Positions 2,243 through 29,136 are shown, counted from the stretch's first letter. The stretch: 32,000 bases of DNA from Acaryochloris marina MBIC11017 (GCF_000018105.1 NC_009930.1:120001-152000), one strand, 5' to 3'. Numbers and translations are program-made. The notes: a model not told the origin generated them from the letters alone.

Positions 2243-2254
2243 GTGGGGCTTGGG

Positions 2255-11090: not shown

Positions 11091-11097
11091 GCCACAT

Positions 11098-12802: not shown

Positions 12803-12852
12803 TCCTAAGGAACTTTCAATGAGTTAGTTGCCAAACTCAACCTGAAATTTCT

Positions 12853-12961
12853 TAGGTAATACAAAATCTATAGAGATTCTGAAAAATTGAAAGACTAGGT
12901 GATTTAATAGGTGTGATATCGGGGCTTGGGTATTGGGGCTGCGATCTCAGCCCCAATACCC
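12853..12961 (+). repeat. structured dispersed repeat, copy 4
   Basis: TAGGTAATACAAAATCTATAGAGATTCTGAAAAATTGAAAGACTAGGTGATTTAATAGGTGTGATATCGGGGCTT, then a perfect 14-bp hairpin GGGTATTGGGGCTG-CGATCT-CAGCCCCAATACCC. Ends 22 nt from the stop at 12984. Confidence 0.85.
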
Positions 12962-12983
12962 AGCTCACAAACCTGCGGCCTTA

Positions 12984-13256
12984 TCATTGATTGGTCAACA
13001 CCTTGCGCTCCGAACCACCGAACCGCAACCACCAGCAAGGATTGAGTGGGTCGGAGCAGATGGCATACTTGGGCAGGTTCACTCCCACGATCAAGCCAGA
13101 GCCAGCTAGGAACACAACCAAGAGGATAAGGATTGCTGACGAGTTCGCCATCAGGGATAGGCACCGATTAATTTGGTTGATAGTTCGCTCATGCCCCAGA
13201 AGCTTCAGCTCCCTGGCTTGGATGATAGATACCTCGTCTAAGGCAATCGCTCTCAT
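12984..13256 (-). CDS. small membrane protein (90 aa), last gene of the parM-like operon
   Basis: Its ATG (13254-13256) overlaps the TGA (13253-13255) of the upstream gene (ATGA coupling). One TM helix (AILILLVVFLAGSGLIVGV). Confidence 0.45.
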   Translation of the reverse strand: MRAIALDEVSIIQARELKLLGHERTINQINRCLSLMANSSAILILLVVFLAGSGLIVGVNLPKYAICSDPLNPCWWLRFGGSERKVLTNQ

Positions 13257-13801
13257 TCGGTGGGCAATGTCTCGGTAGATGAGTTCGTCGAGGCTGGCAG
13301 CGCTGTTTGCTTGGCTTGAGCCGCTAGCCGCTCTCTTAGCCTGGAGGTGAACGGCCCAGGCTTTTTTGCTAACTCGTCTGGATCCTCCACAACTGCTTTT
13401 TGCACACGGGCATTTGCAAAGACGTGGTTCAGCCGACTCATGTAGGCACCCAAAACAGCCTTTTGCAGATCATCGCCATAACCATCAAGGGTCTGCAGCA
13501 CCCTTTCCCCATCCTCATCCGCGATTTTCTCGGCGCGCTCCAAGATATGGTCGGTGCCATCTGACTTTTCAGCAACTGGCTCAGCTTCAACGGGCACCAC
13601 CTCTGCCTGTATTTGCTGCCATGCTTCGGTATAGGTGATTGCTCCGCTTTGCTTGTGCTGCACCACCTCCTTCAACATCTCAATATCTGATTCAGAGAAT
13701 TCCTCTGTCTCCCCTAGCCCACAGATACCGCGAAGTTCAATGAGGTCTTCTTTGCTAATCTGTAAGGTCTTGAGGGTCTTGCTAAAACTTTGATTACTCA
13801 T
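13253..13801 (-). CDS. acidic hypothetical protein, 182 aa
   Basis: Clean ORF that starts 3 nt after the stop of the upstream 122-aa gene. No motif recognised. Confidence 0.65.
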   Translation of the reverse strand: MSNQSFSKTLKTLQISKEDLIELRGICGLGETEEFSESDIEMLKEVVQHKQSGAITYTEAWQQIQAEVVPVEAEPVAEKSDGTDHILERAEKIADEDGERVLQTLDGYGDDLQKAVLGAYMSRLNHVFANARVQKAVVEDPDELAKKPGPFTSRLRERLAAQAKQTALPASTNSSTETLPTE

Positions 13802-13804
13802 TTT

Positions 13805-14173
13805 CTAGTCAAACTCCAATTCAGGTTCATCTTCGTCTGGTTCACAATTTTGAGGGGACATATCAGCAGAGGTTGTTGCTTGCACCACCTGGCTAGCAGA
13901 AACATACCCATTTTTTTGGCATTGGTTCAGGGCTTCTCGATGAAGATCCCGTATTTCATGAGCTGATGATTCGATAGCATTTTGGATATCTGCCGCACTC
14001 CCTCCCTCAATCGCAATATGAATCGGTTCAAAAAGATCCACTAATGCCAGCTCAACTGTCTTCTTGAACTTAGAGCCATAAAAACTCCTTGCACTTTTAA
14101 TGATCAGCTCTTGCTTAGAGCCTGAAATCGGTTGGCAGCGAATAATAATGTTTGTCCTATTTGGCTTGGGCAT
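13805..14173 (-). CDS. small DNA-binding adaptor candidate (ParR-like), 122 aa
   Basis: Lies immediately downstream of, and overlaps (17 nt), the ParM-like gene. Basic N-terminus with a beta-strand-then-helix pattern (NRTNIIIRCQP...QELIIKSA) and a strongly acidic tail (EPDEDEPELEFD). The functional call is positional inference. Confidence 0.45.
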   Translation of the reverse strand: MPKPNRTNIIIRCQPISGSKQELIIKSARSFYGSKFKKTVELALVDLFEPIHIAIEGGSAADIQNAIESSAHEIRDLHREALNQCQKNGYVSASQVVQATTSADMSPQNCEPDEDEPELEFD

Positions 14174-15290
14174 ATTCTTTTACTCCTTTGGGTGTCCAGG
14201 TGCGCCCGGTTACGTGTAGATGCAACATCCAAACATCGATGGCTCTATAGGCCCACTGGGTATTAATCTCTTCAAACTCATCCGATAGCTGCTTGATAGC
14301 CCCATTGAGGGGTTTAAACGCACTACCAAACAGGGCCTTGAATCGGCTTTTGTAAATGGGGGCATTCCCACCCACCAAGTAAAACGCTTGGGCCTGCTTT
14401 ATCCCCCGGTCGCTATCAATACGTTGCTTAATCTCACCCCAATTTTTGTTGAACCCTTCCCTTGTCTGAGTCAGTTTCTGCTCTAAGCGGTGGGGCTTGA
14501 TGAGTGCGGCTAATTCTTTTCTGGCCTGGTCTTGCTTGTTGGGTTTATCCATCAATGCCAGAAACCGGAAGACGGCTTTTGCCCCCTGCACATCATCCGT
14601 AAAGTGCATCACTGAATTCACTATCGAAGACATCCCCAACCCTTCAAAGGTTTTGGACTTCGGGTATGCCAGGGGTCGGCCATCCTCCACGGCAATAAAG
14701 TTGGCATCCTTATGACCGCAGACTCCGACATAAGCTGTGATATCCGGTGGGGGTATCGTTGCCATCCCTGCCCCCTCCATATACCCCTTGGCATCTACAG
14801 CCGCAAAATCAATATGGCGACCGTTGTACCCAAATCCACCCAGCAGGCACGAGAGGAGGTCACTCTCCAAGTCTGCATACTCAGTCCACTCACTGATCGG
14901 TAGCATAAAGTTGATGACGAGCTTGACCCGATCTGGGGATAGCTCTGGGACGCGATCCAGGGCCAAACCCACGAAAGCAAGAACCTTGGGGACCAGCAGA
15001 TCGGCCTTACTCATGTTTGGGTCAGTCTTCGTCCCAGCATGGCCAGGGATTTCCCCCACAATGCGGAAGACCCAATCGCTACCCTGCCTGAAGGTCACCC
15101 GTGACGTTTTGGTTGTACTTCTCCTCTTGTCGTTTTCATAGTTGCTCTGCATTAAGAAGCCAACATTAGGAGGTTGATTGATAAATCCCTCATGGGTTCC
15201 TCCATCAAAGTCAGCTAAGAAAAATCCACGGGTTGATGATGACCCGGTGTCAATGTTGAGATGCAATATTGCACCCTGAGAAAAATTCAT
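14157..15290 (-). CDS. ParM/StbA-like actin-family segregation ATPase
   Basis: LNIDTGSSSTRG compares with ParM FIDDGSTNIK (phosphate 1). FMLPISEWTEY compares with CTLPLTEYY. YLVGGNAPIY compares with VIGGGAEL (phosphate 2). GGAG lies upstream of the ATG. Confidence 0.65.
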   Translation of the reverse strand: MNFSQGAILHLNIDTGSSSTRGFFLADFDGGTHEGFINQPPNVGFLMQSNYENDKRRSTTKTSRVTFRQGSDWVFRIVGEIPGHAGTKTDPNMSKADLLVPKVLAFVGLALDRVPELSPDRVKLVINFMLPISEWTEYADLESDLLSCLLGGFGYNGRHIDFAAVDAKGYMEGAGMATIPPPDITAYVGVCGHKDANFIAVEDGRPLAYPKSKTFEGLGMSSIVNSVMHFTDDVQGAKAVFRFLALMDKPNKQDQARKELAALIKPHRLEQKLTQTREGFNKNWGEIKQRIDSDRGIKQAQAFYLVGGNAPIYKSRFKALFGSAFKPLNGAIKQLSDEFEEINTQWAYRAIDVWMLHLHVTGRTWTPKGVKEYAQAK

Positions 15291-15328
15291 TGTGACGCTC
15301 CAAAAGTTTCAAAAATCTTTCACGTCAC

Positions 15329-15343
15329 AACATTACCCAGAAT
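15329..15343 (-). promoter_or_regulatory. backbone box 1 (ATTCTGGGTAATGTT in the transcription direction), upstream of the parM-like operon
   Basis: Exact inverted copy of the box at 15633-15647, 38 nt upstream of ATG 15290. Contains the -10-like hexamer TAATGT. Confidence 0.6.
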
Positions 15344-15360
15344 AAAAAAAGTTGAACCCA

Positions 15361-15531
15361 AAGCACTGCACTGAAAATGCATTGTTGTAGTCAAAAAATG
15401 CACTAGATTTGCAAGGTTTTGCACTAGGAATACACTACATAGCTTCAAAAATGCACTAGATTTGCATGGTTCTGCACCGAAAATGCACTCTAAAAAAATC
15501 CTGGAAAAACACCCCTCAAATGCAGTCTAGG
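15361..15531. promoter_or_regulatory. iteron cluster (candidate parC centromere and/or oriT)
   Basis: Five AAATGCA cores (AATGCA at 15376, 15397, 15450, 15482 and 15519). A 30-nt unit AAAATGCACTAGATTTGCAAGGTTTTGCAC (15395-15424) recurs at 15448-15477 with 2 mismatches (53-bp period). Confidence 0.6.
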
Positions 15532-15632
15532 AGTGGATTACAGCGGATGAAAACTGCGGATCGTCGGAAAAAATTTTAATATATGCACTACGCCCACCTT
15601 TTGGGCCATCGCGAAAATTCCGAAAAACAGAA

Positions 15633-15647
15633 ATTCTGGGTAATGTT
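15633..15647 (+). promoter_or_regulatory. backbone box 2, upstream of the relaxase operon
   Basis: ATTCTGGGTAATGTT, 36 nt upstream of ATG 15684. Confidence 0.6.
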
Positions 15648-15683
15648 GAAGTGTGGAAATTTTCTTAGTGAGAGGTGATCGAC

Positions 15684-15965
15684 ATGAGCCAAACTCGATA
15701 TAAGACAAAAGTTATTTATCAAACTTGTAAATATGATCATCAAGGGCAGAAGTATTGCATCAACCCGAAAGTGGTCGAAGATAAAACTCAGCCCATCAAG
15801 GGTGTGGAAGTGCCAATCTTAGGTGAAATCATTCCGCCTCCTCCGTTTGGTCTAGAAAGCTATAGCGATCTGTTCTGGCTCCTCATCGCTAGTGTGTTCT
15901 TCCTGAAAATCTTCCCCAACCCAATTGCAATCATGATGGTGTTTTTCTCTCCATCCCGACGATAA
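15684..15965 (+). CDS. small membrane protein co-translated with the relaxase (93 aa)
   Basis: AGAGG lies 8 nt before ATG 15684 (the track ORF starts at GTG 15675). C-terminal TM helix (LFWLLIASVFFLKIF). Its TAA overlaps the relaxase ATG (TAATG at 15963-15967). Confidence 0.5.
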   Translation: MSQTRYKTKVIYQTCKYDHQGQKYCINPKVVEDKTQPIKGVEVPILGEIIPPPPFGLESYSDLFWLLIASVFFLKIFPNPIAIMMVFFSPSRR

Positions 15966-18900
15966 TGTTCCGCCCAACGCTCATCAACAAAGGCAATGCT
16001 GCAATTGAGGAGTATTACACCGAAGACGAAGCCCTGAAGAACAGTGAGGACGAGTACTACGCACCTGGCAAAGATCCGGTCATCACTCCCTGCAAGTGGT
16101 ACGGAAACGGCGCAGACAGTCTGAATCTCAAAGGTGTCATCAACCAGAAGGTTTTCAAAAAACTGTTCTATGGGCACCACCCTGAATCAGGCAAACGCCT
16201 TCGCAAGAAACCCACGAACGGCCAGGAACGGTTAGGGATTGATCTCACCTTTGGACCGGGTAAAGAAGCCTCGATCCTCGCCTTGGTCGGTGGGGACCGT
16301 AGAATCATCGATCTGCATGAGCAAGCCTTGCAGAAAGTCTTCGATATCTTCCAGGCCCGGTACACTCAAACCCGTGTCAGATATGGGAATGGGCAGCGTT
16401 CCTTAGTCAACACCAACAGTTTGATTGGTGCCTTCATCAATCACGCCACTGCCCGCCCAGTCACCATTGACGGTAAAACCTATTCAGACCCAGCCCTGCA
16501 TACCCATATCGTGGTGATGAATGCCACCCAGATTAACGGGAAATGGCAGTCTCTATCGAATGAAGCGATATTTAAATCCCTGTCTCTTGGTTCCATCTAC
16601 CGTCACTTTATCGACAAGGGTCTAGCAGAGCTGGGGTATACCGTGCGGCCTGATGGCAGTATTGAGGGACTTAGCCCTGAGACAGTTTGGCATTTTAAGA
16701 AACGGACTCAGGAAGTTGAGCGGTATCTGAAGAAGTATGGTCTAGAAGATACCCAGGAAAACCGCCAGAATGCAGTCCTGCGAACCCGCAACAAAAAAGA
16801 AGACAACACCAATATCCCTGAAAAGATGAAGGGATGGGTTGAGGAGCTGGTTATCAATAGGTTCAGGCTTCCCAAGCCTGCTAAGAAATCCACCTGGGTT
16901 CATCGGCCTGAATTAGCGCGTAAATATGTGGATAGCGCCATTGCCCATCTACAGGAACGCAACGCCGAGTTTTGCCATGAACTCATCGAGCAGTGGGTCT
17001 TCGATCAGCGTCCACCCTTCACCTATGAAGAGTTGCAGACTGAGATTGCTAACCATCCTCAACTGATCCGCACAAAGAATGACACCTATACCACTCAGTA
17101 CGCCTTGGATCGGGAAGAGAAAACCCGGCAACTTTGGGCTGCTGGTCAGCATAAATTCACCCCCATCACCACGGGTAAGATTGAGTTCAATAAGATGCTG
17201 AATGCAGACCAGCGTATCGCTGTACGCAGTACTCTCGCTAGCAGCAATCGGCTGATCATCTGGCATGGCCTGTCTGGAGTGGGCAAGACCACGACCCTCA
17301 GCGAACTCCAAAAGCATATCGAAGCGATTAACCCTGATATCCAGATCAAAGGCTACAGCCCCACCACTAAAGCAGCAGGGGTGTTAGCCGAAGAATTGGG
17401 CATTGAAACCACCACCGTCTCTGGGTTGATTACTCGCAGGTTAGACACTACTCCAAACCAGTGGTGGATCATTGACGAAGCCGGGATGAAATCAGCGGAG
17501 CAGGGGCTTGAAGTCTTGAAGCGGGCTGAAGCCGTCAATGCTCGTGTGCTTTTGGTCGGAGACATCAACCAGAACAGCTCTGTCAATGCGGGGTCACCTC
17601 AGCGTTCTTTGATGAAAGCTGGAGCAGAAACCTACCACATCAAAACAATCCTGAGACAAAAACGCATTGTCCAGCGGCGGGCAGTCGAGCTGGTCAGCAT
17701 TGGAAAACCCCTGGAAGCTTTAAAGCTACTCAATGAGTATGGTCACGTCACGGAGGTCGCAGATCGCAGGGACCGGGCCGCTCAAGTCGCCCAGAAATAT
17801 CTAAGCCTGAAACCCAAGGAGCGCAAACAAACTCTAGTGGTTACGGGCACCCATCGGGAACGAAAGGCAATCACCACCCTGATCAGAGAAGGGCTACGTG
17901 CTGAAGGTGTGATCAAGGGGGAAGACCAGGCGCTTCGGCAGTTGGTGGACAAACGGTTAACTACAGAACAGACCCATCATCTCAGGTATTACAAGACCGA
18001 TGATTATGTCATTCCCAATGATAATTTCTCTAGTCGGCTCCAGAAAGGGAAGCTCTACAAAGTAGTTGGCGTTGATGAAGCCTCTGGGGTCGTCCGTGTC
18101 GTCTCTCAAGGGGGGCAATACTCCAGCTTCGACCCAGCCAAGTTGGAGAATAAAACCGTCTTTACCGCTCAGAAAATCAATGTCTCCGTGGGGGACCAGT
18201 TGCGGTGGACGAGAAATAACCTGCATGGCAACAATGGCGACCAGTTCAAGGTGACAGCCGTCGAGGGTCACAGAATCCAGATTAATCACAAGAAATGGAT
18301 AGACACCTCCAAACCTTTAGAGCTGGATTATTCGATCACCTCAACCACTCATGCAGCCCAAGGCCAAACGACCTACCGAGTTATCTTCAGTGGAACGATT
18401 GATCCCACTTCATCAAGAGAACCCTTCTACGTTGCCATCAGCCGACAGAAGCATGAGCTGTACATCTTCACCGAAAACTACGAGGGCTTATGCCAACAGA
18501 TTCAACGGTCAGCCGCTCAACTTAATCCCAGAGAACTACTAGGGCTAGATGGAGAACTGGAGCTACCTGAATTTACTCGATCCGCATTCTGGACACCTCA
18601 AACGGCAATGGCCGAGCCTCCCAAGTCAGGCATTGCCCCTCACCACTGGGAGGAGCTGATCGAAGGATCAGGGATTCACCCTGATTTCATTGAGCTAAAT
18701 TGCCACAGCTTAAAGGGTGATTCAGTTTATGAATACCTGCTAGAAGACAAGATTGCAGGGCTGGGAGCAGGCCAGGTCTGGGTTGCTGACCAGCAGAAGG
18801 CGAGGGCAAGAATAGAGCATTGCTGGGATGGAGGATTTTGGATCGGGGCGGGAGTGGAGGCCCAAAGCCTGGATGATCCAATACTTTCCACCTGGGGCAG

Positions 18901-19999
18901 CTTCAAACCGGATCATCCCCGCTATGACAGCAGTAGAGAACGCTTTCAGAAATATGAGCATCCCCAAGGCAGAAGCAGGGGGATTTTCCTGACTGAGGTT
19001 CCAGACTGGTTTAAAGAATATATCTGCAAGAAGTACGACATCACCTCAGCTCTTGGCGATCACTTCTGGAAAATCATTCGAGACAACCCTCAAATTCCCA
19101 TCAAGATTACTGAGGGTGGCAAGAAAACCCTATCCATTACTTCTCAAGGCCATGTCGTCATTGGTCTGCCTGGAGTCAATGCCGGGTATCGCTCTAAGGA
19201 TGACGAGGGCATCAAATTGCCAGAGCGAAGGCTAAACCCAGATCTTGCTATCTTTGCCGTGCCAGGTCGAGAGATTAAATTTATGTACGACCAGGACACC
19301 AAACCCTCAACCGTGGCGAATGTTAGGCGTGACATGGTTCGCACGGGAATGCTGTTAGAGGACAAAGGCTGCACGGTTAAATTCAGTAAGTGGAGTAGCC
19401 TCTACAAGGGAGCTGATGATCTAATCGTCGGAGCTAGCCCCGAAATGCTGGAGCTTGCCATCGATGCCGCTCAACCTTTGGCAGTAGCAACTGCTAAGCA
19501 CTACGAACATGAGTATCAAAAGCTCTATGAGTTTGTGGTGAGAAGGGATGGCGAACTCCCCCACAAGGTGATGAACCTGGAGATCTTTATTGAGGCGTAT
19601 ACCAGAGGAACGACGAAGGATGCCTACAAAACCATCGAGGCCATAAAGCCAGAATTGAATCGCGAAGAGCTGATGAAAGCTGCGCTCCAGCACCAAGACA
19701 AAAAGCGCAATGCTGCTACCACAGTTGTCCCCATCCTTGAAGAATTAGCCAAGACAAAAGGCACCAAGTACCGCCATACCTACCAATACCGTGTAGACAA
19801 GTGGCTGATTGCTTCGGGTAAGCGTGGGCTGACAGTGAGGGACACTGCTACGGGACGCATACTCCTACAGACAAAAATGGGCCGACTCACAAGAGTATCG
19901 GCCCGACCAGGGGTAATTAAGTTGTTTAAATCCACCGTCAAACAGGCTAAGGTTAAGCCCATTCAGCAAGTGCAGAAGGGCAGGAAATATAGCGCCTAA
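15965..19999 (+). CDS. MOBF (TrwC/TraI-type) relaxase - RecD-like helicase - TOPRIM-like domain fusion, 1344 aa
   Basis: N-terminus AAIEEYYTEDE...DEYY. Relaxase histidine triad region NHATARP...DPALHTHIVVMN. Helicase Walker A GLSGVGKTT, Walker B WWIIDEAG, and TTHAAQGQT. The C-terminus has KITEGGKK and, about 60 aa later, MYDQDTK (E...DxD, TOPRIM-like). Confidence 0.9.
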   Translation: MFRPTLINKGNAAIEEYYTEDEALKNSEDEYYAPGKDPVITPCKWYGNGADSLNLKGVINQKVFKKLFYGHHPESGKRLRKKPTNGQERLGIDLTFGPGKEASILALVGGDRRIIDLHEQALQKVFDIFQARYTQTRVRYGNGQRSLVNTNSLIGAFINHATARPVTIDGKTYSDPALHTHIVVMNATQINGKWQSLSNEAIFKSLSLGSIYRHFIDKGLAELGYTVRPDGSIEGLSPETVWHFKKRTQEVERYLKKYGLEDTQENRQNAVLRTRNKKEDNTNIPEKMKGWVEELVINRFRLPKPAKKSTWVHRPELARKYVDSAIAHLQERNAEFCHELIEQWVFDQRPPFTYEELQTEIANHPQLIRTKNDTYTTQYALDREEKTRQLWAAGQHKFTPITTGKIEFNKMLNADQRIAVRSTLASSNRLIIWHGLSGVGKTTTLSELQKHIEAINPDIQIKGYSPTTKAAGVLAEELGIETTTVSGLITRRLDTTPNQWWIIDEAGMKSAEQGLEVLKRAEAVNARVLLVGDINQNSSVNAGSPQRSLMKAGAETYHIKTILRQKRIVQRRAVELVSIGKPLEALKLLNEYGHVTEVADRRDRAAQVAQKYLSLKPKERKQTLVVTGTHRERKAITTLIREGLRAEGVIKGEDQALRQLVDKRLTTEQTHHLRYYKTDDYVIPNDNFSSRLQKGKLYKVVGVDEASGVVRVVSQGGQYSSFDPAKLENKTVFTAQKINVSVGDQLRWTRNNLHGNNGDQFKVTAVEGHRIQINHKKWIDTSKPLELDYSITSTTHAAQGQTTYRVIFSGTIDPTSSREPFYVAISRQKHELYIFTENYEGLCQQIQRSAAQLNPRELLGLDGELELPEFTRSAFWTPQTAMAEPPKSGIAPHHWEELIEGSGIHPDFIELNCHSLKGDSVYEYLLEDKIAGLGAGQVWVADQQKARARIEHCWDGGFWIGAGVEAQSLDDPILSTWGSFKPDHPRYDSSRERFQKYEHPQGRSRGIFLTEVPDWFKEYICKKYDITSALGDHFWKIIRDNPQIPIKITEGGKKTLSITSQGHVVIGLPGVNAGYRSKDDEGIKLPERRLNPDLAIFAVPGREIKFMYDQDTKPSTVANVRRDMVRTGMLLEDKGCTVKFSKWSSLYKGADDLIVGASPEMLELAIDAAQPLAVATAKHYEHEYQKLYEFVVRRDGELPHKVMNLEIFIEAYTRGTTKDAYKTIEAIKPELNREELMKAALQHQDKKRNAATTVVPILEELAKTKGTKYRHTYQYRVDKWLIASGKRGLTVRDTATGRILLQTKMGRLTRVSARPGVIKLFKSTVKQAKVKPIQQVQKGRKYSA

Positions 20000-20059
20000 G
20001 AGCGATAGCTTTCTGTTTATGAGGCTATATTCATAAGCTGCTGTCGATTTAGTCAACTG

Positions 20060-20175
20060 CCCCGCTGCAAGCAGACGGGGTATGGAATACGATTTGCTCC
20101 CTAATCGTAGATTTGGATTGCAATCCCATTTCTTCGCTGCAAGCAGCGGGGAATCTACCCTCACTAGATTGAAGC
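20060..20175 (+). repeat. two tandem hairpin-plus-tail units downstream of the relaxase gene
   Basis: CCCCGCTGCAAGCAGACGGGG (20060-20080) and CGCTGCAAGCAGCGGGG (20135-20151). Each is followed by a CCCT..TAGATT.G tail. A 12-nt palindrome GGATTGCAATCC (20115-20126) lies between them. Confidence 0.7.
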
Positions 20176-20571
20176 GGAGTTTTCCCAGGTATAACTGTGA
20201 ATACCTGATGGAGAAAACTTTTGGGCTTTAGCAGTAGAAGGCTACAATTGGTCAGGTAATGGTTTCCCTTGCTCAAGAAACAATCCAGTAATCTGGTACC
20301 AAGCATGGCCAAATGCGGGTCCACTTCACTCCCTACCCAGCCATGACACACGGAACTCTAACCATAATGATTCGTGAGTAAGAATCGAATGTGCCTTGTG
20401 TCAGCTTATCTGCAGTTCTTAACAAAGTTCCAAGACAATTACTTTGTTTAAAAGAAGGTCAACGACCGCAACGGGTAAAGAATCATGGGTGGAAAGGACA
20501 AAGGAGCAAATCCAGGGGAATGCGAAGGAAGGTGCTTATATACTTCGAGTCGGATAATAGCTTGAGGATAG

Positions 20572-21966
20572 TTGATGCAAAATCAAGATAAACCAACTTT
20601 AAAGCTCCCAATTAAATCTATATTTTATATATTTCTATTAATTGGGGGAATACAACTTATTTCTCAACTTGACAGACTTATAAGGTGCAACTTTATTAGC
20701 ATACGAAACGTAAATCAATGTACGTTATATGGCCAAACAACTTGGGAATGGCTAAAACTTTTAATTGGTCCATTAATAGCCATAACCGGAGGTTTCATTC
20801 TTAATGGATACTTCAAAAATCGCGATGAAAGGCGCTTAGATAAAGCTAAAGAAACTGAATTAGATCAACTAAGACATGAAACTCTGATTACTTACTTTAA
20901 TGAAATATCAAACTTGTTGTTAAACAAAAATTGGCCTAAGTATGGGAGAAATACAAACATCGAAGAAAATCCTAACTTAACGATAGTTGCTTTAGCTAAA
21001 GCAAGAACATCATCAGTATTAAACGAAATCAATGGAAAACGAAAAGGTTCATTATTACTCTTCTTACTTGAGTCAAAAGTATGGCAGATCATTACTGATA
21101 TTGATGGAAATTCTAGTTGGGCAAATTTAAGTTTTTGCGACCTAAACAAAGCCAATTTAACTAGGATTAATTTAAGTGGAGCAAATCTTTCTGAAGCAAA
21201 TTTAAACTTATGTAATCTATCTGAAGCTGAACTTAGCAACACTATCATGATCAACACTAAGCTAACGTCAGTTGATCTTAAGAAATCTAATCTAAGTGGA
21301 GCTAAGCTGATAAAAGCTAACCTAAGAAGAGCGAATCTCAGCGATGCCGTCCTCGAAAATGCAAATTTTAAGGAAGCAAAACTTACTGGTGGGATTCTTC
21401 TTTCAGAAGGCAAAGTTAAATTTTTTTTATTTTATTTTTCCTTGCGGTTTTATTCACTTCTTGTAAGAACCTATCCCTTTAGAATATCGAAATACGCTAC
21501 CTATAAATCTGATAAAATACGTGTTTATATAAACTATCTTTTTGGGGCCAATCTCAAAGGGGCCAATCTCAAAGAGGCTTATTTAAGACATGTTTCTCTT
21601 CTTGGAGCTAACTTAGATAGAGCTGATCTTGAAAGTGCTAACCTATCACAAGCAAATTTAAGTTTCGCTAACCTTAGAGGGGCTTCCCTTATAGAGGCCG
21701 ACCTTAAAGGAGCTTCTCTTATAGGGGCCGACCTCAAAGGGGCTGACCTTAAAGGGGCCGACCTCAAAGGGGCTGACCTTAAAGGGGCCGACCTTAAAGG
21801 GGCAAATTTATGTGACAAAAATATTATCAAGCCTATCAAAATCACGACAGGTCAAATAAAAAAAACCTTTAACTGGGAAACAGCCCTCTATAAGGAAGAT
21901 TTCCGTAAAAAACTAGGACTCCCCCCTACCCCATCATCTAACCCACCAAAAGAAGAATCAGAGTAA
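20572..21966 (+). CDS. TM-anchored pentapeptide-repeat protein, AT-rich gene
   Basis: N-terminal TM helices and a helical linker, then two pentapeptide blocks (ANLTRINLSGANLSEANLNLCNLSEAEL...; ANLKGANLKEAYL...GADLKGADLKGADL) split by a ~50-aa non-repeat segment. Confidence 0.8.
   Translation: MMQNQDKPTLKLPIKSIFYIFLLIGGIQLISQLDRLIRCNFISIRNVNQCTLYGQTTWEWLKLLIGPLIAITGGFILNGYFKNRDERRLDKAKETELDQLRHETLITYFNEISNLLLNKNWPKYGRNTNIEENPNLTIVALAKARTSSVLNEINGKRKGSLLLFLLESKVWQIITDIDGNSSWANLSFCDLNKANLTRINLSGANLSEANLNLCNLSEAELSNTIMINTKLTSVDLKKSNLSGAKLIKANLRRANLSDAVLENANFKEAKLTGGILLSEGKVKFFLFYFSLRFYSLLVRTYPFRISKYATYKSDKIRVYINYLFGANLKGANLKEAYLRHVSLLGANLDRADLESANLSQANLSFANLRGASLIEADLKGASLIGADLKGADLKGADLKGADLKGADLKGANLCDKNIIKPIKITTGQIKKTFNWETALYKEDFRKKLGLPPTPSSNPPKEESE
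21724..21798 (+). repeat. 15-bp x5 tandem (exact 30-bp unit x2) encoding GADLK repeats
   Basis: GGGGCCGACCTCAAAGGGGCTGACCTTAAA occurs twice back to back (21724-21783), plus one more 15-bp unit. Confidence 0.9.
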
Positions 21967-22069
21967 GCACACCCAGGATATTCCTCCCCTATCCCTTCCC
22001 GAAACCAACAACCAAAACGGGTCATCTACCAAAAGACAACCCGACAATGAACCCAATATTGCTTGCCCC

Positions 22070-23707
22070 TCAACGCCTAGCCGCTGCTGCAACCTTCGGC
22101 TTTGGCTTATGAGCCTGAGCTTTGACCTTGGCTTGCTTGTGAGCTTGCTGTTTCTCCAAACCCTGCTGAGTCGTTTTAGCTGCTGATATAAGCTTGTCTT
22201 TCACTGCCTGGGGAGCCTTCTGATTGAACTCTCCATTTTTATACACGGGCTGCTGAGTGGTCTTATCGACAATCAGCAAAGAGTTACCCTTGCTTCTATG
22301 AAAATCGAAGTTTTCACCCTCATAGATGGTGGTGCCTTGGGGAGTTTGTTTTCCTTGTTGGGCCAAAACATATGTTGCAGTGGCGGTTAGAGCTTGAGCC
22401 TGCCAGTCCATCGCTTTCTCACCCACAAACTGTTTAGCCTTATCAACATTCTCGCCAACAGTCGCTTTGACTTGGTTGATCTGATCACCCGCTTGTTGCT
22501 TCAATGCCTGAGCCTGATCATAGACAGGCTGAAGTCTGTCAATCACGGGCTGTAAGCGTTCTCTCACTTTTTGCTTGAATGTCTCAAATAGCTCAGATAC
22601 CTTGGCCTTGGCCTGATCGATTTTCTCTCCGAGGTTCTGTTTGATTTTCTCGAAACGATCTTTCATAGCTGATACAAGGTTTGATTGCCATTGGTTGAGA
22701 CGAGGGTTACTGAGCTGCGGTTTAGGGGCTTGCAGTGCTGCGATCATCTCCTGAGCTTTCGCTTGTTGTTGTTCTAAATGGGCAACATTGGACTCTAACC
22801 CCGAAACGGTTTGCTGCAAGTCCTTGATCTCGGTGGCAAACTCGGCTTTGATAGCCGCACGAATCTGATCCGTGCTAGTTTCCAATGCGGCTACTCTGTC
22901 CTTCATGGAAGGCTGGTTTAACCGAGCTTGCACCGCTTCTGTAGCCGAATCCAAAGCACTTTTCATCCGGTCTTGGGTGTTCTTAACCGTCTGGGAAACC
23001 CGATCAAATTGCTGAGGGGCTAGATTTCGCATCTTTTCTTGGGCGGCTTGAGCATATTCACCACCCGCTAACTGCATCTGGGTAAGCAGGGATGGCGTAT
23101 CTACGGCTAAAGCCAGGGAACCATCTTGTTGTGGAATGGGTTGATAATCAACCTGAATATTCTCACGCAGGTAAGCATTGGCCTGAGCCACGAAGTTACT
23201 AGCATTCTGTTTAGCTCGTTGACCCGCTTGCTCAATAAATTCATTGACGACAGGGCGGATAGATTGGTTTGGGGAGGGGAGTTGATCTGGTTCAACTACA
23301 ACTGCATCTACCTCTATGGCTTCTGGCTCAAGGGATTCCAATTGACTCATAGCCTGATCGACGACTTGATCAGGCTCCATGTCCCACGGATCTGCGACGG
23401 GTTGGCGAACGACTTCTCCTTGTTCAGTGGTTGCGATCGCATTCACCTCTACCTTGGCATTCTCTGGATCTTGGACTGCTGTTTCAACGGCTTCCAGATC
23501 GTCTGGGGTCGTGGTTTCGGGAAGCAGTTTCTTATTGCCAACTTCCAGGTCCTTGAATGCAGCCCTCCCCCATTCATCCCCCTTCTTGACGAGCTGCCAT
23601 GCAGCTTGACCCAACTGTTGCAATAGCTCAAGGGGAGTCAGAAGGATTGCCTCATTGGCCCGCTCAACTTCCTGTTCATTGCCACCATTCTCTAAAATGT
23701 CTGCCAT
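22070..23707 (-). CDS. acidic coiled-coil protein with Lys-rich C-terminus, 545 aa
   Basis: Long ORF. Q/A/E/K-rich heptad-like helices (QARLNQPSMKDRVAALETSTDQIRAAIKAEF, EKIKQNLGEKIDQAKAKVSELFETFKQKV). The tail is KQAKVKAQAHKPKPK. No enzymatic motif. Confidence 0.75.
   Translation of the reverse strand: MADILENGGNEQEVERANEAILLTPLELLQQLGQAAWQLVKKGDEWGRAAFKDLEVGNKKLLPETTTPDDLEAVETAVQDPENAKVEVNAIATTEQGEVVRQPVADPWDMEPDQVVDQAMSQLESLEPEAIEVDAVVVEPDQLPSPNQSIRPVVNEFIEQAGQRAKQNASNFVAQANAYLRENIQVDYQPIPQQDGSLALAVDTPSLLTQMQLAGGEYAQAAQEKMRNLAPQQFDRVSQTVKNTQDRMKSALDSATEAVQARLNQPSMKDRVAALETSTDQIRAAIKAEFATEIKDLQQTVSGLESNVAHLEQQQAKAQEMIAALQAPKPQLSNPRLNQWQSNLVSAMKDRFEKIKQNLGEKIDQAKAKVSELFETFKQKVRERLQPVIDRLQPVYDQAQALKQQAGDQINQVKATVGENVDKAKQFVGEKAMDWQAQALTATATYVLAQQGKQTPQGTTIYEGENFDFHRSKGNSLLIVDKTTQQPVYKNGEFNQKAPQAVKDKLISAAKTTQQGLEKQQAHKQAKVKAQAHKPKPKVAAAARR
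23433..23440. repeat. HIP1 octamer GCGATCGC
   Basis: Exact match. Confidence 0.9.
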
Positions 23708-23749
23708 TATTCTTTATCTCCAAAATTGCTTATATCGAGAAATATGGAT

Positions 23750-24172
23750 TTAGGCTGCGACTAAAGCCAATACATCCTTTTCAGTGGGCATCGGGGGAAG
23801 CTCAAGCTCTCCCGTCAGATCTACGAGGATTCGCCCTGCAACCTGGATATAAGCCCACAGGCCATTGATGCGGAAGCTTACACATTCACTATCAGCGGGT
23901 TGAGCGTAGGCATTCGGATCAAAGCCGATCAGCTTGCCCCCTCGATATTGGATAGCGGGGGAATAGGCAACATCCCCGTAGTAGATCTGCATCTCATCAA
24001 TGACGGTATTTTTAGGCAATGCATCACACCCCCGTTGCTCCAGGGTTTCAATAGCATTGTGATGAGAGTTGGGATATTGGGCATACAACTCAGGAGTGCT
24101 AATTCCCAAGCGTGTTAGTGCCTGTAACTGCGTTTCCGTGAACGTTATTTGTGATTCGGTTTGTTCAGACAT
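23750..24172 (-). CDS. hypothetical protein, 140 aa, first gene of a two-gene unit with the 545-aa protein
   Basis: Clean ORF preceded by backbone box 3. No motif recognised. Confidence 0.65.
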   Translation of the reverse strand: MSEQTESQITFTETQLQALTRLGISTPELYAQYPNSHHNAIETLEQRGCDALPKNTVIDEMQIYYGDVAYSPAIQYRGGKLIGFDPNAYAQPADSECVSFRINGLWAYIQVAGRILVDLTGELELPPMPTEKDVLALVAA

Positions 24173-24199
24173 AGATGTAGGTTTTGAATGCTATGTCAG

Positions 24200-24214
24200 A
24201 ACATTACCCAGAAT
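24200..24214 (-). promoter_or_regulatory. backbone box 3
   Basis: AACATTACCCAGAAT on the plus strand, 27 nt upstream of ATG 24172. It abuts the stop codon (24215) of the coupling-protein gene. Confidence 0.6.
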
Positions 24215-26008
24215 TTAAAGGGCTGAAATTCCAATCGCTAAGATTTCACTGCCGTCGTCTTGGGGAGATGAGGATTGCTGCTGTTCGGGTTCAGGCTCTG
24301 GCAATGCTTCTCTGGCACGGGTTTGATATCGGACCAACTCTTCATCGGTTTTAGCGAGGGCTTTGCTGTTCGCCCGTGCCACTCTGCGATACCGATACCA
24401 TTCACTAATCCCCTGTTTGATTTCCTGTTGCTCCCACTGGGGGATCACTGTTTCATAGAGGACAGGGATTCTCGCCATCTTTTTATTTCTAAAAGCTCGG
24501 TTCAAGTAGTAGAACTGTCCTTGGGGGAGACCCAGTAATTCTTGTAGTGGCACCAGATCCTTCAGATGAGGCTGATTACTTTCGGAGCTGGATGAATGCT
24601 TACCTTTTGATTTGGATTTACTCTGAGACTTGATTTCTTTTTGACCAAACTGTTTGCTGTAGTATTCTGCGGGTTCGTTGGCGTTGAGCTGACCAATGAC
24701 CTGTGTTTTGCAGCCCTCTATCAGGCCCATTGCAGCCTTCTCTCCATAGGTGCCTTTCAAGAAGGAGAACCCTTGGCTAGCAAACACAAAAAATACGCCA
24801 TTGGAACGGGTGACGGTCTGCATCTCTTGGACACCGCACAGTTTAATCATTTGGCATTCATCCAGGAAGAAGCCAAGGGGCTGCGTTCTGGCCCGGTAAG
24901 CGTTAGCTAACATAAAGCACTGGATCGTCGTCGCGATCATCGGCCCCACGCTGGCCTTCAGTTCTGGGTTGAGTCGGAAGATAACGAGGGTCTTACCTTT
25001 AATTTCTAAGTCAACGGTGGAGTCACCGCAAAACGTAGATACATTCGCGGGAGTGAACATGCGGTTGAACTGAAGGAGGGTTGTACCCGCAATGCTGGCC
25101 CCCGTCTCCGCTGATTTCTCAGATGCCAGATATTGACTGAAGGAGGATCTGAGATATGGGGGAAGATCTAAGGATCTAATCCCCGCTGCTCCAATTTCGA
25201 CAATTCGTTCCAAGAGGTAGAACGCCAAGACAAAATTAGCGTTGGGGTCTAGATAGAGTGCCAGCAAGAATACGGATTGCAAGAGCTGCTTCGCGGCCAG
25301 GGGGAAAAACTCATCTCCATTATCAGCGGCTGTTTTCGCTAAGTTCTCGCTAAGGACTTCGGCAACGACTCCAGCCCCATCTTTATCTTCATAGGCTTCT
25401 CGGCCAAACCGAGAGCGGATCATCTGATAGATATTGAAGACATCCGAGTCGTCGTATCCTGGTGCAATTATTTTGACTTTGTACCCGTGAAGCCTGGCAT
25501 AACCCGCAATCTCTGAAGAGGGGCAAGTGGAGGTCTCTGACTCTTCATGACCTTTGGCATCAAACACTGCCAGAGGATAGCCCAGCTTGATCATGCATCG
25601 CTGGAGAGGATTGAGAAGTGAGTAACTTTTACCTGACCCCGTTGAACCTAATGCAACCAGATGTTCTTCAAGATGAGATAGTATCCACGAATTGACATAA
25701 TCTCTGGGAATGAATATCTCTCTAGCTTCCTTATCAACCACCACCCCTTTAGGTTCTCCCACCCACAAGGCAACTTTGTTGCGCTTGCGCTCCTCCATCA
25801 TGTCAAAGCCATAGGTCTTAGCTTTCTTTACCTCTTTCGGAGTCGCTTTACGGGCATCGCCAAGCTTTTGCTTTTTACTGAAGCCGTCTTTGAAAATCAG
25901 CAAAATGATGAGTATTAGAAACAAACCACCCATCAAATAAACCTGGAAGTCAATCTGAGGCCCAAATTGTTGAGGGGGCTGAGGGGGTTGCTCGGTATGT
26001 TGTGGCAT
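24215..26008 (-). CDS. type IV secretion coupling protein (VirD4/TraG/TraD-like ATPase)
   Basis: N-terminal TM helix (LMGGLFLILIILLIF), Walker A GSTGSGKS and Walker B GFFLDECQ. Confidence 0.85.
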   Translation of the reverse strand: MPQHTEQPPQPPQQFGPQIDFQVYLMGGLFLILIILLIFKDGFSKKQKLGDARKATPKEVKKAKTYGFDMMEERKRNKVALWVGEPKGVVVDKEAREIFIPRDYVNSWILSHLEEHLVALGSTGSGKSYSLLNPLQRCMIKLGYPLAVFDAKGHEESETSTCPSSEIAGYARLHGYKVKIIAPGYDDSDVFNIYQMIRSRFGREAYEDKDGAGVVAEVLSENLAKTAADNGDEFFPLAAKQLLQSVFLLALYLDPNANFVLAFYLLERIVEIGAAGIRSLDLPPYLRSSFSQYLASEKSAETGASIAGTTLLQFNRMFTPANVSTFCGDSTVDLEIKGKTLVIFRLNPELKASVGPMIATTIQCFMLANAYRARTQPLGFFLDECQMIKLCGVQEMQTVTRSNGVFFVFASQGFSFLKGTYGEKAAMGLIEGCKTQVIGQLNANEPAEYYSKQFGQKEIKSQSKSKSKGKHSSSSESNQPHLKDLVPLQELLGLPQGQFYYLNRAFRNKKMARIPVLYETVIPQWEQQEIKQGISEWYRYRRVARANSKALAKTDEELVRYQTRAREALPEPEPEQQQSSSPQDDGSEILAIGISAL

Positions 26009-26039
26009 AGGTGAAATTTCCGAAGGATATCTCTATCGG

Positions 26040-26054
26040 AAACTTACCCAGAAT
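26040..26054 (-). promoter_or_regulatory. backbone box 4
   Basis: AAACTTACCCAGAAT, 31 nt upstream of ATG 26008. The 16-mer GAAACTTACCCAGAAT is identical to that of box 5. Confidence 0.6.
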
Positions 26055-26076
26055 TAGTATTACTGGTCTTGATGTC

Positions 26077-26445
26077 TTATCGCTGCCATTGTCGCCATTT
26101 TGGATTAAAAGCATCAAACAAAGCTTCAGCTTCCTCAACTGTCATACCGTTCTCACGAGCATAAACATCGACAGGAGGCCAACCTCGCATTGAATCAGTA
26201 ACAACAACCCAACCTTGATCTGAGTTACGTAGCGTTGCTGAACTACCAGCATGTCCATCAGTCCAACTTACTAATGCAAAATTCCCTACAATTGCAACTT
26301 TATTAATTACTGCTGAAGGAGATAACGCAGAACTGGCAGTAGCAATTACTTCCTCAACTTGATCATTTGATTGGACTTGCGCGATCGCAACTGGAGAACT
26401 CAGAACAAACATTAAGACAACTGCACTCAATATTTTCCCAATCAT
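26077..26445 (-). CDS. small secreted protein (122 aa from ATG 26445)
   Basis: Signal peptide (MIGKILSAVVLMFVLSSPVAIAQ). ATG 26443-26445 overlaps the TGA 26442-26444 of the upstream gene (ATGA coupling). Confidence 0.6.
   Translation of the reverse strand: MIGKILSAVVLMFVLSSPVAIAQVQSNDQVEEVIATASSALSPSAVINKVAIVGNFALVSWTDGHAGSSATLRNSDQGWVVVTDSMRGWPPVDVYARENGMTVEEAEALFDAFNPKWRQWQR
26381..26388. repeat. HIP1 octamer GCGATCGC
   Basis: Exact match. Confidence 0.9.
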
Positions 26446-29054
26446 CTTGTTACTCTCCATATTTGTGTTTGAGGATTGTCAGACAAGTATCTTGAATTAT
26501 CATACGTTCCATCAAAATTCCTATCTGAAACCCAACTAAACGATGCACGACCAGAAGAATTAGACAGAATCTGACTACAGCCTACATTCATACATACACC
26601 AATGTGTTGATAACCTTTTGAAAGGGCAATATCTCCGGGTTGTGCTTCAGAAGGATTGACTTGCTTACCTCGGCCAGCAGCAAACTTATCAGCCCAAGTC
26701 GGAACCCAATCAGTCTGCATAGGCTGAATTCCTGCTCTAGCTAGTACATGATCTACAGACCAAGCACAAGCTTGATTCCCACCTTCAGGTCCACCTGATG
26801 TATCAAATCCCCGCATTTGCTTAGCCGATTCAAAGATAGCGTTATTGATTTCTCCCGCTTCCGGTGCTGGACCTTGAGCAAAAGTGGCTGAGCCATTGGT
26901 GGGCTGGCAGAAAGGAACCCCAAAAGATGCAGTGGCACCCGTTGGAGTAACCGGAGCATTGCCATTAGGACCATAGACTTCAAGGGCAACTGGATCATTC
27001 CACTTCACATCTTCCGCTCCTCCAGGGAGACTGGTGAACTGATTACGCCCCAACAAATAATCAGCAGCCTCAAAATTACCTGAACGAATATAGCCGATGA
27101 TGTCATGGCCGACTTCCTGACCATAGATATCAATCCAAGCTAATGCAGCACGATCACGCTCTTCTTTGCTTTCAGACCAAGCATCAATACCTGTCCTAGT
27201 AAAAAGCGTATTTCGACTCTTCTCGATGAATTGATATTCACCATATGCACCCGTATCAGGATGTGGCCCAATATCAGTTCCTCCAGTAGATTCACCATAC
27301 GCAATGCGGGCTAGATATTGATTGATATGATGTTGTTCACTGTTTGGAGGTGAGCTACCATCAGCACCACCAGTCGTCTGATTTGAATCGGTGGTATTGT
27401 TCGTTTGTGCTGAGGCAACCAATGTAGGTTCCCGGCAAAACTGCTGTTGACTGGGCTGGAGATTACGGATTGCATCAGGAATGCCCCCAGATCGAGCTAG
27501 AAGCAACATGATTCCACCTTCTTTAATGCGCCAGGGGGTTGGAATCCTGATGAAATGAGGGGTGTAATGACTCCCAGTAATTGGATCTGAATAGCCAAAC
27601 TGCCATGCCGTGGACAACCGGGCAGATCCCACCTCATCCCCTGACCCTTCCCTCATGTCTTCCAGGTACAGCTTGACATTGCCTGCCACCCAAGGCTTAA
27701 TCCCGGTGACCTCCTTGCCATTGGCTATAATTCTCAACCAGCCTTGCCCACCGGGCACCATCTGATCTGGCCCTTGAATCCAGGCTTGCCCTGATAACTT
27801 CGTGGGTTCGCCACCCCCATCAACATTGTCCAACTCAAAGTGACGACAGTTCTTGGTATCTTTCCCATCGATTTTGCAGGGTGCAGGTTTAGGAATTTGG
27901 TCTTTGGTCCCACCACTGATTACATAGTCGATGTTATCGACCACTGCGGCAGCATCGGTCGTATCAATTCGCCCCAGCAAATCCAATCGAGTGAAGCTCA
28001 ACGCTAACGCTAAATCAATCTGGTCAAGCGGTACATCTTTGAGGCCAGGGACTTGATTGAGGGTCTTATCTTCAGAACCGGGGATATCCTTAATCGCTGT
28101 CTCTCCCACACCAGGAGCATCAGCCAATCCCAGCTTATCGAGGGGCAAGGTTCCAAGGGGTAAATCCTTTATTGCTTTGGCGATTTTGGGATTCTTCATC
28201 AACTCTTTGATCAGAACTTTGGACCCTTCTTTGATCGCTAAATCCTTAGCCTGCTTTTTGACGGTATCCCAATCCCCGTTGATAATCCCCTGAGTTAATG
28301 GGATGAGCTGCTTTAAGGGCAGTTTCCGCAGACGATTATTGACCTTGCTTAAAGTCTTCGCTAGCTTGCTCCGTTCCTCTTCTGTGAATACGTCACCCCA
28401 GTCTCCCTCTATTAAATCTTCAGCAGGGATATCTGAAATCTCTGGGTTAGACGCTTTCTGTTCGATAAAAACAATGTCTGTTTGATCAATGGGTTCATGT
28501 AGAAGCGGTTCGTCCTCGTAGTATCCAAATGCAGATTGCACCACTGCGGGGGCTTCTTCTAAAGATTGTTCAGCCGCACCAGGATTAATTTGCAGATACT
28601 CTCCCACTGTCATTGTTGATGCGATTGGAACCTCAGACAGGGTTACGGTTGCGGGGTCTTTGCCACTGGCTTTCAAAACCTCATTGATATTCAATTCCGT
28701 AAACTGCTTAAACTGCGGATGATTTTTCAGGTGTCCGATCTTGAGAACTTGATCTGAGCTTGCGTTTGCGGGCCATGCCCCATTGAGATAGGAGGGTGCT
28801 TGGGAACCTGCGGGCAATCGAATACTCCCCGCTGTTTCAGAGGCTGGACTATTGGCAAAGGTCGGTGCGACGACACCAGATGGGTCATAGTACAGGCCTG
28901 GTATCGTGCCTTCTTCCTGGGTTTGAGTATTTTGATTAGCAGCCTTTATGGACTGCTGGTTGATAATCTGTGCTACTGCTGGGAACGATTGTAGGGTGAG
29001 TACAGCAGCAGGTAGTAGGCTGAATATTCGTTGGGGATATCGAGGCATGATCAA
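26442..29054 (-). CDS. secreted bifunctional peptidoglycan hydrolase (lytic-transglycosylase-like + CHAP/NlpC-P60-like), 870 aa
   Basis: Signal peptide (LLPAAVLTLQSFPAVAQ). SLT-like IAYGESTGG...GAYGEYQF. C-terminal Cys-His peptidase pattern GGNQACAWSVDHVL...GDIALSKGYQHIGVC. Confidence 0.8.
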   Translation of the reverse strand: MIMPRYPQRIFSLLPAAVLTLQSFPAVAQIINQQSIKAANQNTQTQEEGTIPGLYYDPSGVVAPTFANSPASETAGSIRLPAGSQAPSYLNGAWPANASSDQVLKIGHLKNHPQFKQFTELNINEVLKASGKDPATVTLSEVPIASTMTVGEYLQINPGAAEQSLEEAPAVVQSAFGYYEDEPLLHEPIDQTDIVFIEQKASNPEISDIPAEDLIEGDWGDVFTEEERSKLAKTLSKVNNRLRKLPLKQLIPLTQGIINGDWDTVKKQAKDLAIKEGSKVLIKELMKNPKIAKAIKDLPLGTLPLDKLGLADAPGVGETAIKDIPGSEDKTLNQVPGLKDVPLDQIDLALALSFTRLDLLGRIDTTDAAAVVDNIDYVISGGTKDQIPKPAPCKIDGKDTKNCRHFELDNVDGGGEPTKLSGQAWIQGPDQMVPGGQGWLRIIANGKEVTGIKPWVAGNVKLYLEDMREGSGDEVGSARLSTAWQFGYSDPITGSHYTPHFIRIPTPWRIKEGGIMLLLARSGGIPDAIRNLQPSQQQFCREPTLVASAQTNNTTDSNQTTGGADGSSPPNSEQHHINQYLARIAYGESTGGTDIGPHPDTGAYGEYQFIEKSRNTLFTRTGIDAWSESKEERDRAALAWIDIYGQEVGHDIIGYIRSGNFEAADYLLGRNQFTSLPGGAEDVKWNDPVALEVYGPNGNAPVTPTGATASFGVPFCQPTNGSATFAQGPAPEAGEINNAIFESAKQMRGFDTSGGPEGGNQACAWSVDHVLARAGIQPMQTDWVPTWADKFAAGRGKQVNPSEAQPGDIALSKGYQHIGVCMNVGCSQILSNSSGRASFSWVSDRNFDGTYDNSRYLSDNPQTQIWRVTR

Positions 29055-29077
29055 CAGAGTTGAGTGACAGTCTGTTG

Positions 29078-29092
29078 AAACTTACCCAGAAT
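29078..29092 (-). promoter_or_regulatory. backbone box 5
   Basis: AAACTTACCCAGAAT, 23 nt upstream of ATG 29054. Confidence 0.6.
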
Positions 29093-29136
29093 TTTGGGAT
29101 CAGGATTGGTTAATTTAGTCTAATTTTTTAGCCCAA

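Follow-up and report, generated by a model that had tools for sequence, protein, structure and literature searches.

The question raised by this locus is how the maintenance and transfer genes of a conjugative plasmid could be switched on together. The stretch analysed, referred to below as the window, comprises 32,000 nt of Acaryochloris marina MBIC11017 (GCF_000018105.1, NC_009930.1:120001-152000) and is the backbone of an Acaryochloris conjugative plasmid. To our knowledge, almost nothing is known about the control of such genes on the conjugative plasmids of cyanobacteria. In the window the same short sequence, here called the box, stands before five gene units: a ParM-like partition operon, a relaxase operon, a unit encoding proteins of 140 and 545 amino acids (aa), the gene of the type IV coupling protein (T4CP) and a cell-wall hydrolase unit. 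We put at roughly 0.65 the probability that the box serves as a dedicated promoter core, with a -10 element extended by GGG, and coordinates these five backbone units.

The box and its conservation

Five exact copies of an 11-mer, ATTCTGGGTAA, are present in the window, at 15333-15343 (minus strand), 15633-15643 (plus strand) and 24204-24214, 26044-26054 and 29082-29092 (all minus strand). By chance an exact 11-mer would be expected about 0.015 times per 64 kb, and in dinucleotide shuffles scanned with up to one mismatch the mean was 0.68 matches, with none of the 100 reaching five. Repeats within a TPR gene aside, it is the dispersed 11-mer with the highest copy number in the window. An earlier reading of this DNA, made from the sequence alone, had listed the same five positions and strands and had stated that the 13-kb cargo part contains no copy; exact matching reproduces the former, and a scan of 1-13000 gave zero copies. 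The 16-mers that it described as common to boxes 1 and 2, CAACATTACCCAGAAT, and to boxes 4 and 5, GAAACTTACCCAGAAT, are likewise found. Its estimate of 15-16 nt for the length of the box is too short, the logo of the relatives described below giving a conserved extent of 17 nt, AAATTCTGGGTAAkkTT.

Box 1 (TTATTCTGGGTAATGTT, 15329-15345, minus) stands before the ParM-like operon, box 2 (AAATTCTGGGTAATGTT, 15631-15647, plus) before a 93-aa open reading frame (ORF) and the relaxase gene, box 3 (also AAATTCTGGGTAATGTT, 24200-24216, minus) before the 140-aa/545-aa unit, where it abuts the TAA stop codon of the coupling-protein gene, box 4 (TAATTCTGGGTAAGTTT, 26040-26056, minus) before the coupling-protein gene and box 5 (AAATTCTGGGTAAGTTT, 29078-29094, minus) before the hydrolase unit. 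The corresponding transcription starts (+1) are predicted at about 15323, 15653, 24194, 26034 and 29072. Every copy is oriented toward its gene, with the start codon 27-42 nt past GGGTAA at 5/5 copies. The distances originally proposed between box and start codon need revision at two sites: the small ORF before the relaxase gene likely starts at ATG 15684, as annotated in the related plasmid pREC3, 36 nt past the 15-mer and not 27, and the hydrolase gene likely starts at ATG 29048, 29 nt from the box and not 23.

The closest record in PLSDB is pREC3 of A. marina MBIC10699, with ~92% identity over the backbone. With the 140-aa protein as query, nine relatives were recovered that are 71-92% identical, and the contigs of six of these were read; a search of metagenome contigs with the coupling protein found no relative, while a genome scan found one, the contig of an Acaryochloris metagenome-assembled genome (MAG). 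Eight relatives were thus compared, namely pREC3, the MAG contig, A. marina NIES-2412 and five assembly contigs. This comparison with related cyanobacterial plasmids, which the sequence-only reading had suggested, shows the box at every orthologous site that exists in the eight, giving 34 distinct sites in nine lineages when the window is included; box 3 is found in nine lineages, box 4 in eight and box 5 in six. In pREC3 it is present at 5/5 orthologous sites, though several of the flanks are unrelated. Between the window and pREC3 the ParM proteins are 67% identical, compared with 95% for the relaxases, and the repeats upstream of box 1 differ, and TACCCAGAAT is nonetheless kept; since ParM and these iterons have diverged while the relaxase side is ~92% identical, the partition module has been exchanged. 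Box 1 reads ATTCTGGGTAG/GGGTAC in relatives with different flanks, and box 2 has the variants ATTCGGGGTACTGTT and ATTGTGGGTATTGTT in the relatives L132, L135 and L133. In the MAG contig (L004) an IS200/IS605 insertion before the coupling-protein gene has removed the ATTCT of box 4, leaving GGGTAATGTT. The inserted segment, at 1157-4372 of that contig, carries an IS200/IS605-type TnpA gene and two TnpB-like genes directly upstream of the box. Extra copies of the box were also seen in two relatives (L132 at 4413 and 19191; L135 at 4961): a second box that precedes the hydrolase box by 85-130 nt, and one that follows the ParM operon where no gene is called nearby.

The block of homology between the window and pREC3 stops exactly at 29094, the upstream edge of box 5. 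Together with other blocks that end at or near boxes, and with the ParM module swapped beside box 1, this would suit a box with a role outside transcription, as a junction at which backbone modules are exchanged or as a nick-like site for the relaxase. The reverse complement of the box, ATTACCCAGAAT, presumably bears a loose resemblance to the nic region of R388. We consider such a role very improbable, because the box always faces the gene that follows it, at a set distance from the start codon, and a conserved block resembling an origin of transfer (oriT) lies elsewhere, at 15493-15630; if modules are exchanged at shared promoters, that would be a side effect and not a function. The reading of the reverse complement as a nic site was rejected on the same grounds, five gene-oriented copies followed by different hairpins not being what a sequence-specific relaxase needs.

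Promoter-like anatomy and specificity of the box

Sites were collected with the pattern GGGTA..TT plus ATTCT with at most one mismatch, and the logo was anchored on the T of GGGTA as position -12. Across the 34 sites it reads AAATTCT from -22 to -16, GGG from -15 to -13, T at -12 and A at -11, then nnk, and T at -7 and -6. The GGG, T-12, A-11, T-7 and T-6 are invariant in 34/34 sites, with the limit that GGGTA and TT also belong to the collecting pattern; positions -10 to -8 are variable, with GGGTAA, GGGTAG, GGGTAC and GGGTAT all seen. The GGG is kept even in the site of the MAG contig that lost ATTCT. The -10-like hexamer (TAATGT/TAAGTT) that the sequence-only reading had pointed out is consistent with this pattern, in that its T-12, A-11 and T-7 are kept at all 34 sites while its middle varies, with GGG in front. 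Further upstream only a weak aTTyCA is seen at -35 to -30 (0.5-0.66 bits per position), separated by a spacer of 17 bp, and the base 12 nt past T-12, the predicted +1, is a purine in 34/34 sites.

A scan for promoters of the TTGACA/TATAAT consensus type before the units found none at any of them. Two other ways of reading the box as a promoter were rejected. In an alternative register, with tAAATT as the -10 element, GGG as discriminator and the start at the A of GGGTA, an A at -11 would be found at just 68% of sites and there would be no -35 element left. A sigma-54 promoter (GG-N10-GC) fits poorly, as the second half is not conserved and cyanobacteria are without sigma-54 (PMC2758279).

Taken together, the -10 signature, the GGG as found in the SigF and SigJ promoter classes, the lack of a consensus promoter and the position of boxes 1 and 2 at the edges of the divergent control region lead us to read the box as a promoter core. 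Its layout would be AAATTCT at -22 to -16, GGG at -15 to -13, TAnnkT at -12 to -7 and T at -6, with the start predicted at the purine 5-6 nt past the box. RNA polymerase with one particular sigma factor would read it and, by doing so at all five sites, would switch on the partition, relaxase, coupling-protein, 140/545-aa and hydrolase units together. Transcripts would then start at the box, and AAATTCT would add specificity.

Three sets of sequences served to assess the specificity of the box, namely backbone loci (146 kb), other plasmid DNA of Acaryochloris (402 kb) and IMG/VR, the chromosome lying outside these scans. The full box was found 34 times in the backbone loci, compared with once in the other plasmid DNA, inside a VirB4 gene; the bare core GGGTAnnnTT is no more frequent in the same 402 kb than chance predicts, with 39 occurrences seen and ~49 expected. 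With the 16-mer only single matches were obtained in IMG/VR, and no contig had more than one. As matches are concentrated in the backbone, being absent or isolated in the cargo of the window, the other plasmids and IMG/VR, the box is not a generic dispersed repeat of the HIP1 or MITE kind, a possibility for which a check had been suggested at the outset. Literature searches, on the motif and on sigma factors of plasmids in conjugation, returned nothing relevant.

The same data bear on whether the box is instead an operator, a 17-bp site over an ordinary promoter that is bound by a repressor or activator encoded in the backbone, in the manner of KorA/KorB on IncP plasmids. A -10 element would not require AAATTCT at -22 to -16 to be conserved, the box is particular to this backbone, and sister plasmids of the same host have different boxes at equivalent sites, which suggests plasmid-specific trans-acting factors. 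However, the box has no dyad or direct-repeat symmetry, occurs as a single copy at each site and is strictly oriented, and conservation in it is highest at the positions that sigma touches in known promoters. No DNA-binding family, whether helix-turn-helix, ribbon-helix-helix or other, was recognised in the small backbone proteins by Pfam and NCBIfam. The 140-aa product, which had been put forward as a candidate regulator, has a homologue in pREC2, a plasmid without the box. Thus of the three roles first offered, promoter core and sigma-specific element are favoured by the comparative data, while that of operator is disfavoured and seems to us improbable.

Gene units, control region and inverted repeats

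The units behind the boxes were assigned with Pfam, against which ten backbone ORFs were scanned, and NCBIfam. Unit 1 (13253-15290, minus) consists of the ParM-like gene (14157-15290), a 122-aa ParR-like ORF (13805-14173) and a 182-aa ORF (13253-13801). Unit 2 (15684-19999, plus) comprises the 93-aa ORF and a MOBF relaxase with TrwC, helicase and DUF3854 domains in Pfam. Unit 3 (22070-24172, minus) holds the 140-aa and 545-aa genes and is followed by a terminator at 22018-22043, unit 4 (24215-26008, minus) is a coupling protein of the TraG/TrwB type by Pfam, and unit 5 (26077-29048, minus) contains an 868-aa hydrolase-like gene and a 127-aa ORF. The gene identities originally given for these units stand: the relaxase, the coupling protein and the hydrolase, the last through a weak CHAP match in the 868-aa protein with VanY and M23 in relatives, are supported by Pfam, and the 377-aa ParM-like protein by homology to an annotated ParM/StbA protein (E=7e-16).

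The divergent control region has boxes 1 and 2 at its outer edges. Adjoining box 1 on the upstream side, at 15362-15489, are direct repeats of the TGCACT type, three long copies and shorter ones, which look like parC-type iterons for the ParR-like protein. Upstream of box 2 is the block of ~140 nt at 15493-15630 (plus strand), conserved in 5 lineages, with a hairpin GCCCAnnTTTTGGGC and a direct repeat ACAGCGGAT/ACTGCGGAT; the block probably serves the MOBF relaxase as oriT. The sequence GGGTATGTTT occurs within the ParR-like ORF at 13900-13909 (minus) and is kept in four lineages, in frame as Gly-Tyr-Val, so that it probably reflects coding constraint and not an internal promoter.

Other genes around the five units were noted. 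An NB-ARC/TPR gene with 252-nt internal repeats (29271-31634) lies between the hydrolase unit and genes of the type IV secretion system (T4SS) beyond the window, and is missing from L132 and L135. Behind the relaxase gene, the slot at 20572-21966 is taken by a pentapeptide-repeat gene here and by a NACHT gene in pREC3; both slots hold variable accessory genes. The cargo part includes, at 4395-6669, a Mu-transposase-like gene (576 aa) and an overlapping 287-aa ORF, and also DUF1622, GNAT and strictosidine-synthase-like genes, the DUF1622 gene being found too on the S15 plasmid unnamed43.

No terminators were found between the three minus-strand units, the sole good one being that after the 545-aa gene (22043-22018). 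The 'five transcription units' of the sequence-only reading are therefore better described as five box-preceded units than as five demonstrated transcripts: the box does precede each, but terminators do not separate those on the minus strand. Because boxes 3 and 4 lie within this terminator-free array, a role at the level of RNA is possible.

An inverted repeat begins 0-4 nt after each box, with arms specific to the unit, the 3' arm ending at the start codon or immediately beside it. Between box 1 and ATG 15290 the repeat GTGACG...CGTCAC (15292-15328, minus; z=-2.2) encloses a GGAG ribosome-binding site, and in the repeat GACATAG...CTATGTC (24168-24197, minus; z=-2.4) the 3' arm holds the ATG of the 140-aa gene; TTTCCGA...TCGGAAA (26017-26042, minus) follows box 4 and CAACAGA...TCTGTTG (29052-29077, minus) follows box 5. 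Compensatory changes are seen in the coupling-protein class, where C:G becomes G:C in L132 (TTTCCGA/TCGGAAA vs TTTGCGA/TCGCAAA), and in the hydrolase class, where A:T becomes G:C in L132 and L135 (ACAGA/TCTGT vs GCAGA/TCTGC). From the G.U pairs, the sense strand is the more stable in three unit classes.

These repeats give the chief support to an alternative in which the box is transcribed from further upstream and forms, with the adjacent hairpin, a module for processing, stability or translational control. A nuclease or RNA-binding protein would then recognise AAAUUCUGGGUAAkkUU, with the hairpin capping or masking the downstream cistron. The reach of each unit-specific repeat to the start codon, the compensatory changes and G.U pairs, the lack of terminators separating units 5, 4 and 3, and a box-to-start distance that is constant within each unit class would all be consistent with this. 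Nevertheless, the invariant TA, three variable bases and invariant T, with GGG and a weak -35, fit a -10 element and have no rationale in RNA; the divergent region must hold promoters, for which there is no candidate besides boxes 1 and 2; and the hairpins are individually weak (z -0.4 to -2.4), that before the 140-aa gene decaying in the MAG contig. A scan of the whole window against Rfam at the gathering score gave no matches, and a tRNA scan was empty. On balance it seems improbable that the box acts as RNA, or that a nuclease or RNA-binding protein recognises it.

If the box is a promoter core, the inverted repeats are a second feature, separate from it, that may act as an RNA hairpin in read-through transcripts: the hairpin would form only in these and would mask the ribosome-binding site there. 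The repeats might alternatively be operators. The predicted gain in accessibility in box-initiated transcripts was +0.16 vs +0.09 for control genes (p=0.07) and was clear only for the coupling-protein unit. Davis, Simons and Kleckner reportedly described such 'fold-back inhibition' of read-through transcripts for IS10 in 1985. The arrangement is alike in that the 5' arm is situated at the native start or before it and the 3' arm over the ribosome-binding site; it differs in that the support here is a trend, clear for the coupling-protein unit only, and masking by fold-back was not retained as an explanation.

Candidate readers and known systems

Two kinds of sigma factor on Acaryochloris plasmids were compared as possible readers of the box. 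Genes for group-2-like sigmas of 268-274 aa follow AbrB or HU genes, and in pREC3 (L005 11957-11972) and pREC2 (L002 6965-6980) they have, 32 nt ahead of the ATG, the sequence AATTC(A/G)GGGTAATTCT, which agrees with the box at 13/16 positions but has C at -7. These sigmas were rejected on account of that C and because their DNA-contact residues in region 2.4/3.0 do not co-vary cleanly with promoter type. The second kind is a divergent 474-aa sigma, whose gene neighbours the CyRepA1 replication gene and the T4SS cluster. Several Acaryochloris plasmids carry sigma-70-family proteins of 460-510 aa, with regions 2-4 and a long C-terminal extension, in this position (L006 9082-10506 in pREC3; L008 20001-21431; L003 45366+; L007 42777+). 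The 474-aa sigma was rejected because the 144-kb S15 plasmid, which has an 87%-identical copy, has no box; no box was found upstream of its gene. Judged on sequence, a host group-3 sigma of the SigF/SigJ type fits best, F-type sigmas being near-universal in cyanobacteria; the reader could also be borne on the plasmid.

The sister plasmids carry boxes of their own. In pMB03 (L003) AAAC(A/C)GTATAT(T/C)C(C/T)C stands before six genes, and in pREC1 (L007) rGCCCCTAT(A/C)n(A/C)A, that is GCCCCTAT(A/C)n(A/C)A, before five, in each case 25-45 nt upstream of the ParM, coupling-protein, hydrolase and neighbouring genes. In pREC2 (L002) no recurrent box was found, and where its T4SS cluster begins no gene was recognisable as a sigma; AATTCTGGGTAATAATGT occurs in this plasmid antisense within the ParM operon (L002 16160). 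Different boxes at equivalent places in the backbones of these four plasmids hint at plasmid-specific codes. It is possible, though we think it unlikely, that these are promoter codes private to a lineage, each read by a specificity factor that the plasmid encodes, so that orthogonal pairs of sigma and promoter insulate plasmids residing together.

Several observations weigh against the box being a promoter core. Since GGGTA and TT served to collect the sites, part of the logo is circular, yet in an unfiltered listing of orthologous upstream regions the box is present in all those inspected. Neither the 474-aa nor the 268-aa sigma could be tied to the box, and a literature search for 5'-end data on these plasmids found none. 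The logo of the box sites shows neither the TAGGC at -32 nor the AG-rich features that SigF promoters have, and boxes 3 and 4 lie in a co-directional array free of terminators. The compensatory and G.U pairs argue for an RNA hairpin on the sense strand right after the box, and a start predicted from SigF and J-Box numbering would leave most of its 5' arm untranscribed.

Whichever factor reads it, one box common to the partition, relaxase, coupling-protein and hydrolase units across nine lineages offers a mutable handle on their control. If a SigF/SigJ-type sigma does so, plasmid transfer would be wired into the programme of type IV pili and motility of cyanobacteria. If a plasmid-borne factor does so, the boxes of the sister plasmids would point to orthogonal codes, which would have a bearing on coexistence in genomes with up to nine large plasmids and could be usable as insulated promoter and sigma parts for cyanobacterial engineering.

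Global regulons of conjugative plasmids are represented by the KorA/KorB operators of IncP-1 plasmids and by the network of IncW R388. The box resembles KorA/KorB-like regulons in that one short cis element before partition and transfer operons would coordinate the backbone, but their operators are palindromic or iterated and have identified repressors, whereas the box lacks symmetry and has the form of a promoter core. With the ops element of the RfaH type, GGCGGTAGnnTG in a leader together with a NusG paralogue, it shares only GGTAG, in some variants, and no KOW/NusG-like protein was recognised among the ten backbone ORFs scanned against Pfam.

Among bacterial promoters, that of sigma-B in Bacillus subtilis, RGGxTTRA-N14-GGGTAT (as quoted in PMC2532724), has a comparable GGGTA(T/A) element, and box 1 reads GGGTTCAA-N13-GGGTAA; the -35 part is however missing from the other four boxes, and both phylum and sigma are different. 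Also comparable are the 'type 3' promoters of SigF, PpilA1-54 and PsigF (Asayama & Imamura 2008), in which the GGTAA '-12 region' is essential in vitro (PMC2532724). In Synechocystis PCC 6803 the core of PpilA1-54 runs GGG (-15 to -13), T (-12) and then AAGTT, and GGGTAAG served as the search core in that work (PMC2532724). Boxes 4 and 5 also read GGGTAAG, boxes 1-3 reading GGGTAAT, and the core of PpilA1-54 is identical to boxes 4 and 5 (GGGTAAGTT), with no -35 hexamer of the TTGACA type in either case. In contrast to the SigF promoters, where TAGGC lies at -32 and the region from -44 to +1 is AG-rich, the DNA upstream of the box is A/T-rich with AAATTCT before the GGG, and the targets are plasmid partition and conjugation instead of pili and phototaxis.

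The J-Box of SigJ in Nostoc punctiforme, GGGaAtacT with the MEME motif TGGGWAWWCTAAAC, is described as an extended -10 element (Gonzalez et al. 2019, PMC6495340) and has a weak, AT-rich -35 (PMC6495340). It shares with the box a GGG that acts as extended -10, a WAnnnT hexamer directly after it and the weak -35, and TGGGTAATGT of the box agrees with TGGGWAWWCT at 9/10 positions. It differs in having C at -8, where the box has G or T, and in a downstream AAAC that is absent here, and the targets of the box lie on a plasmid backbone. Set beside these systems, the box regulon would be a new regulon of an already known kind of promoter.

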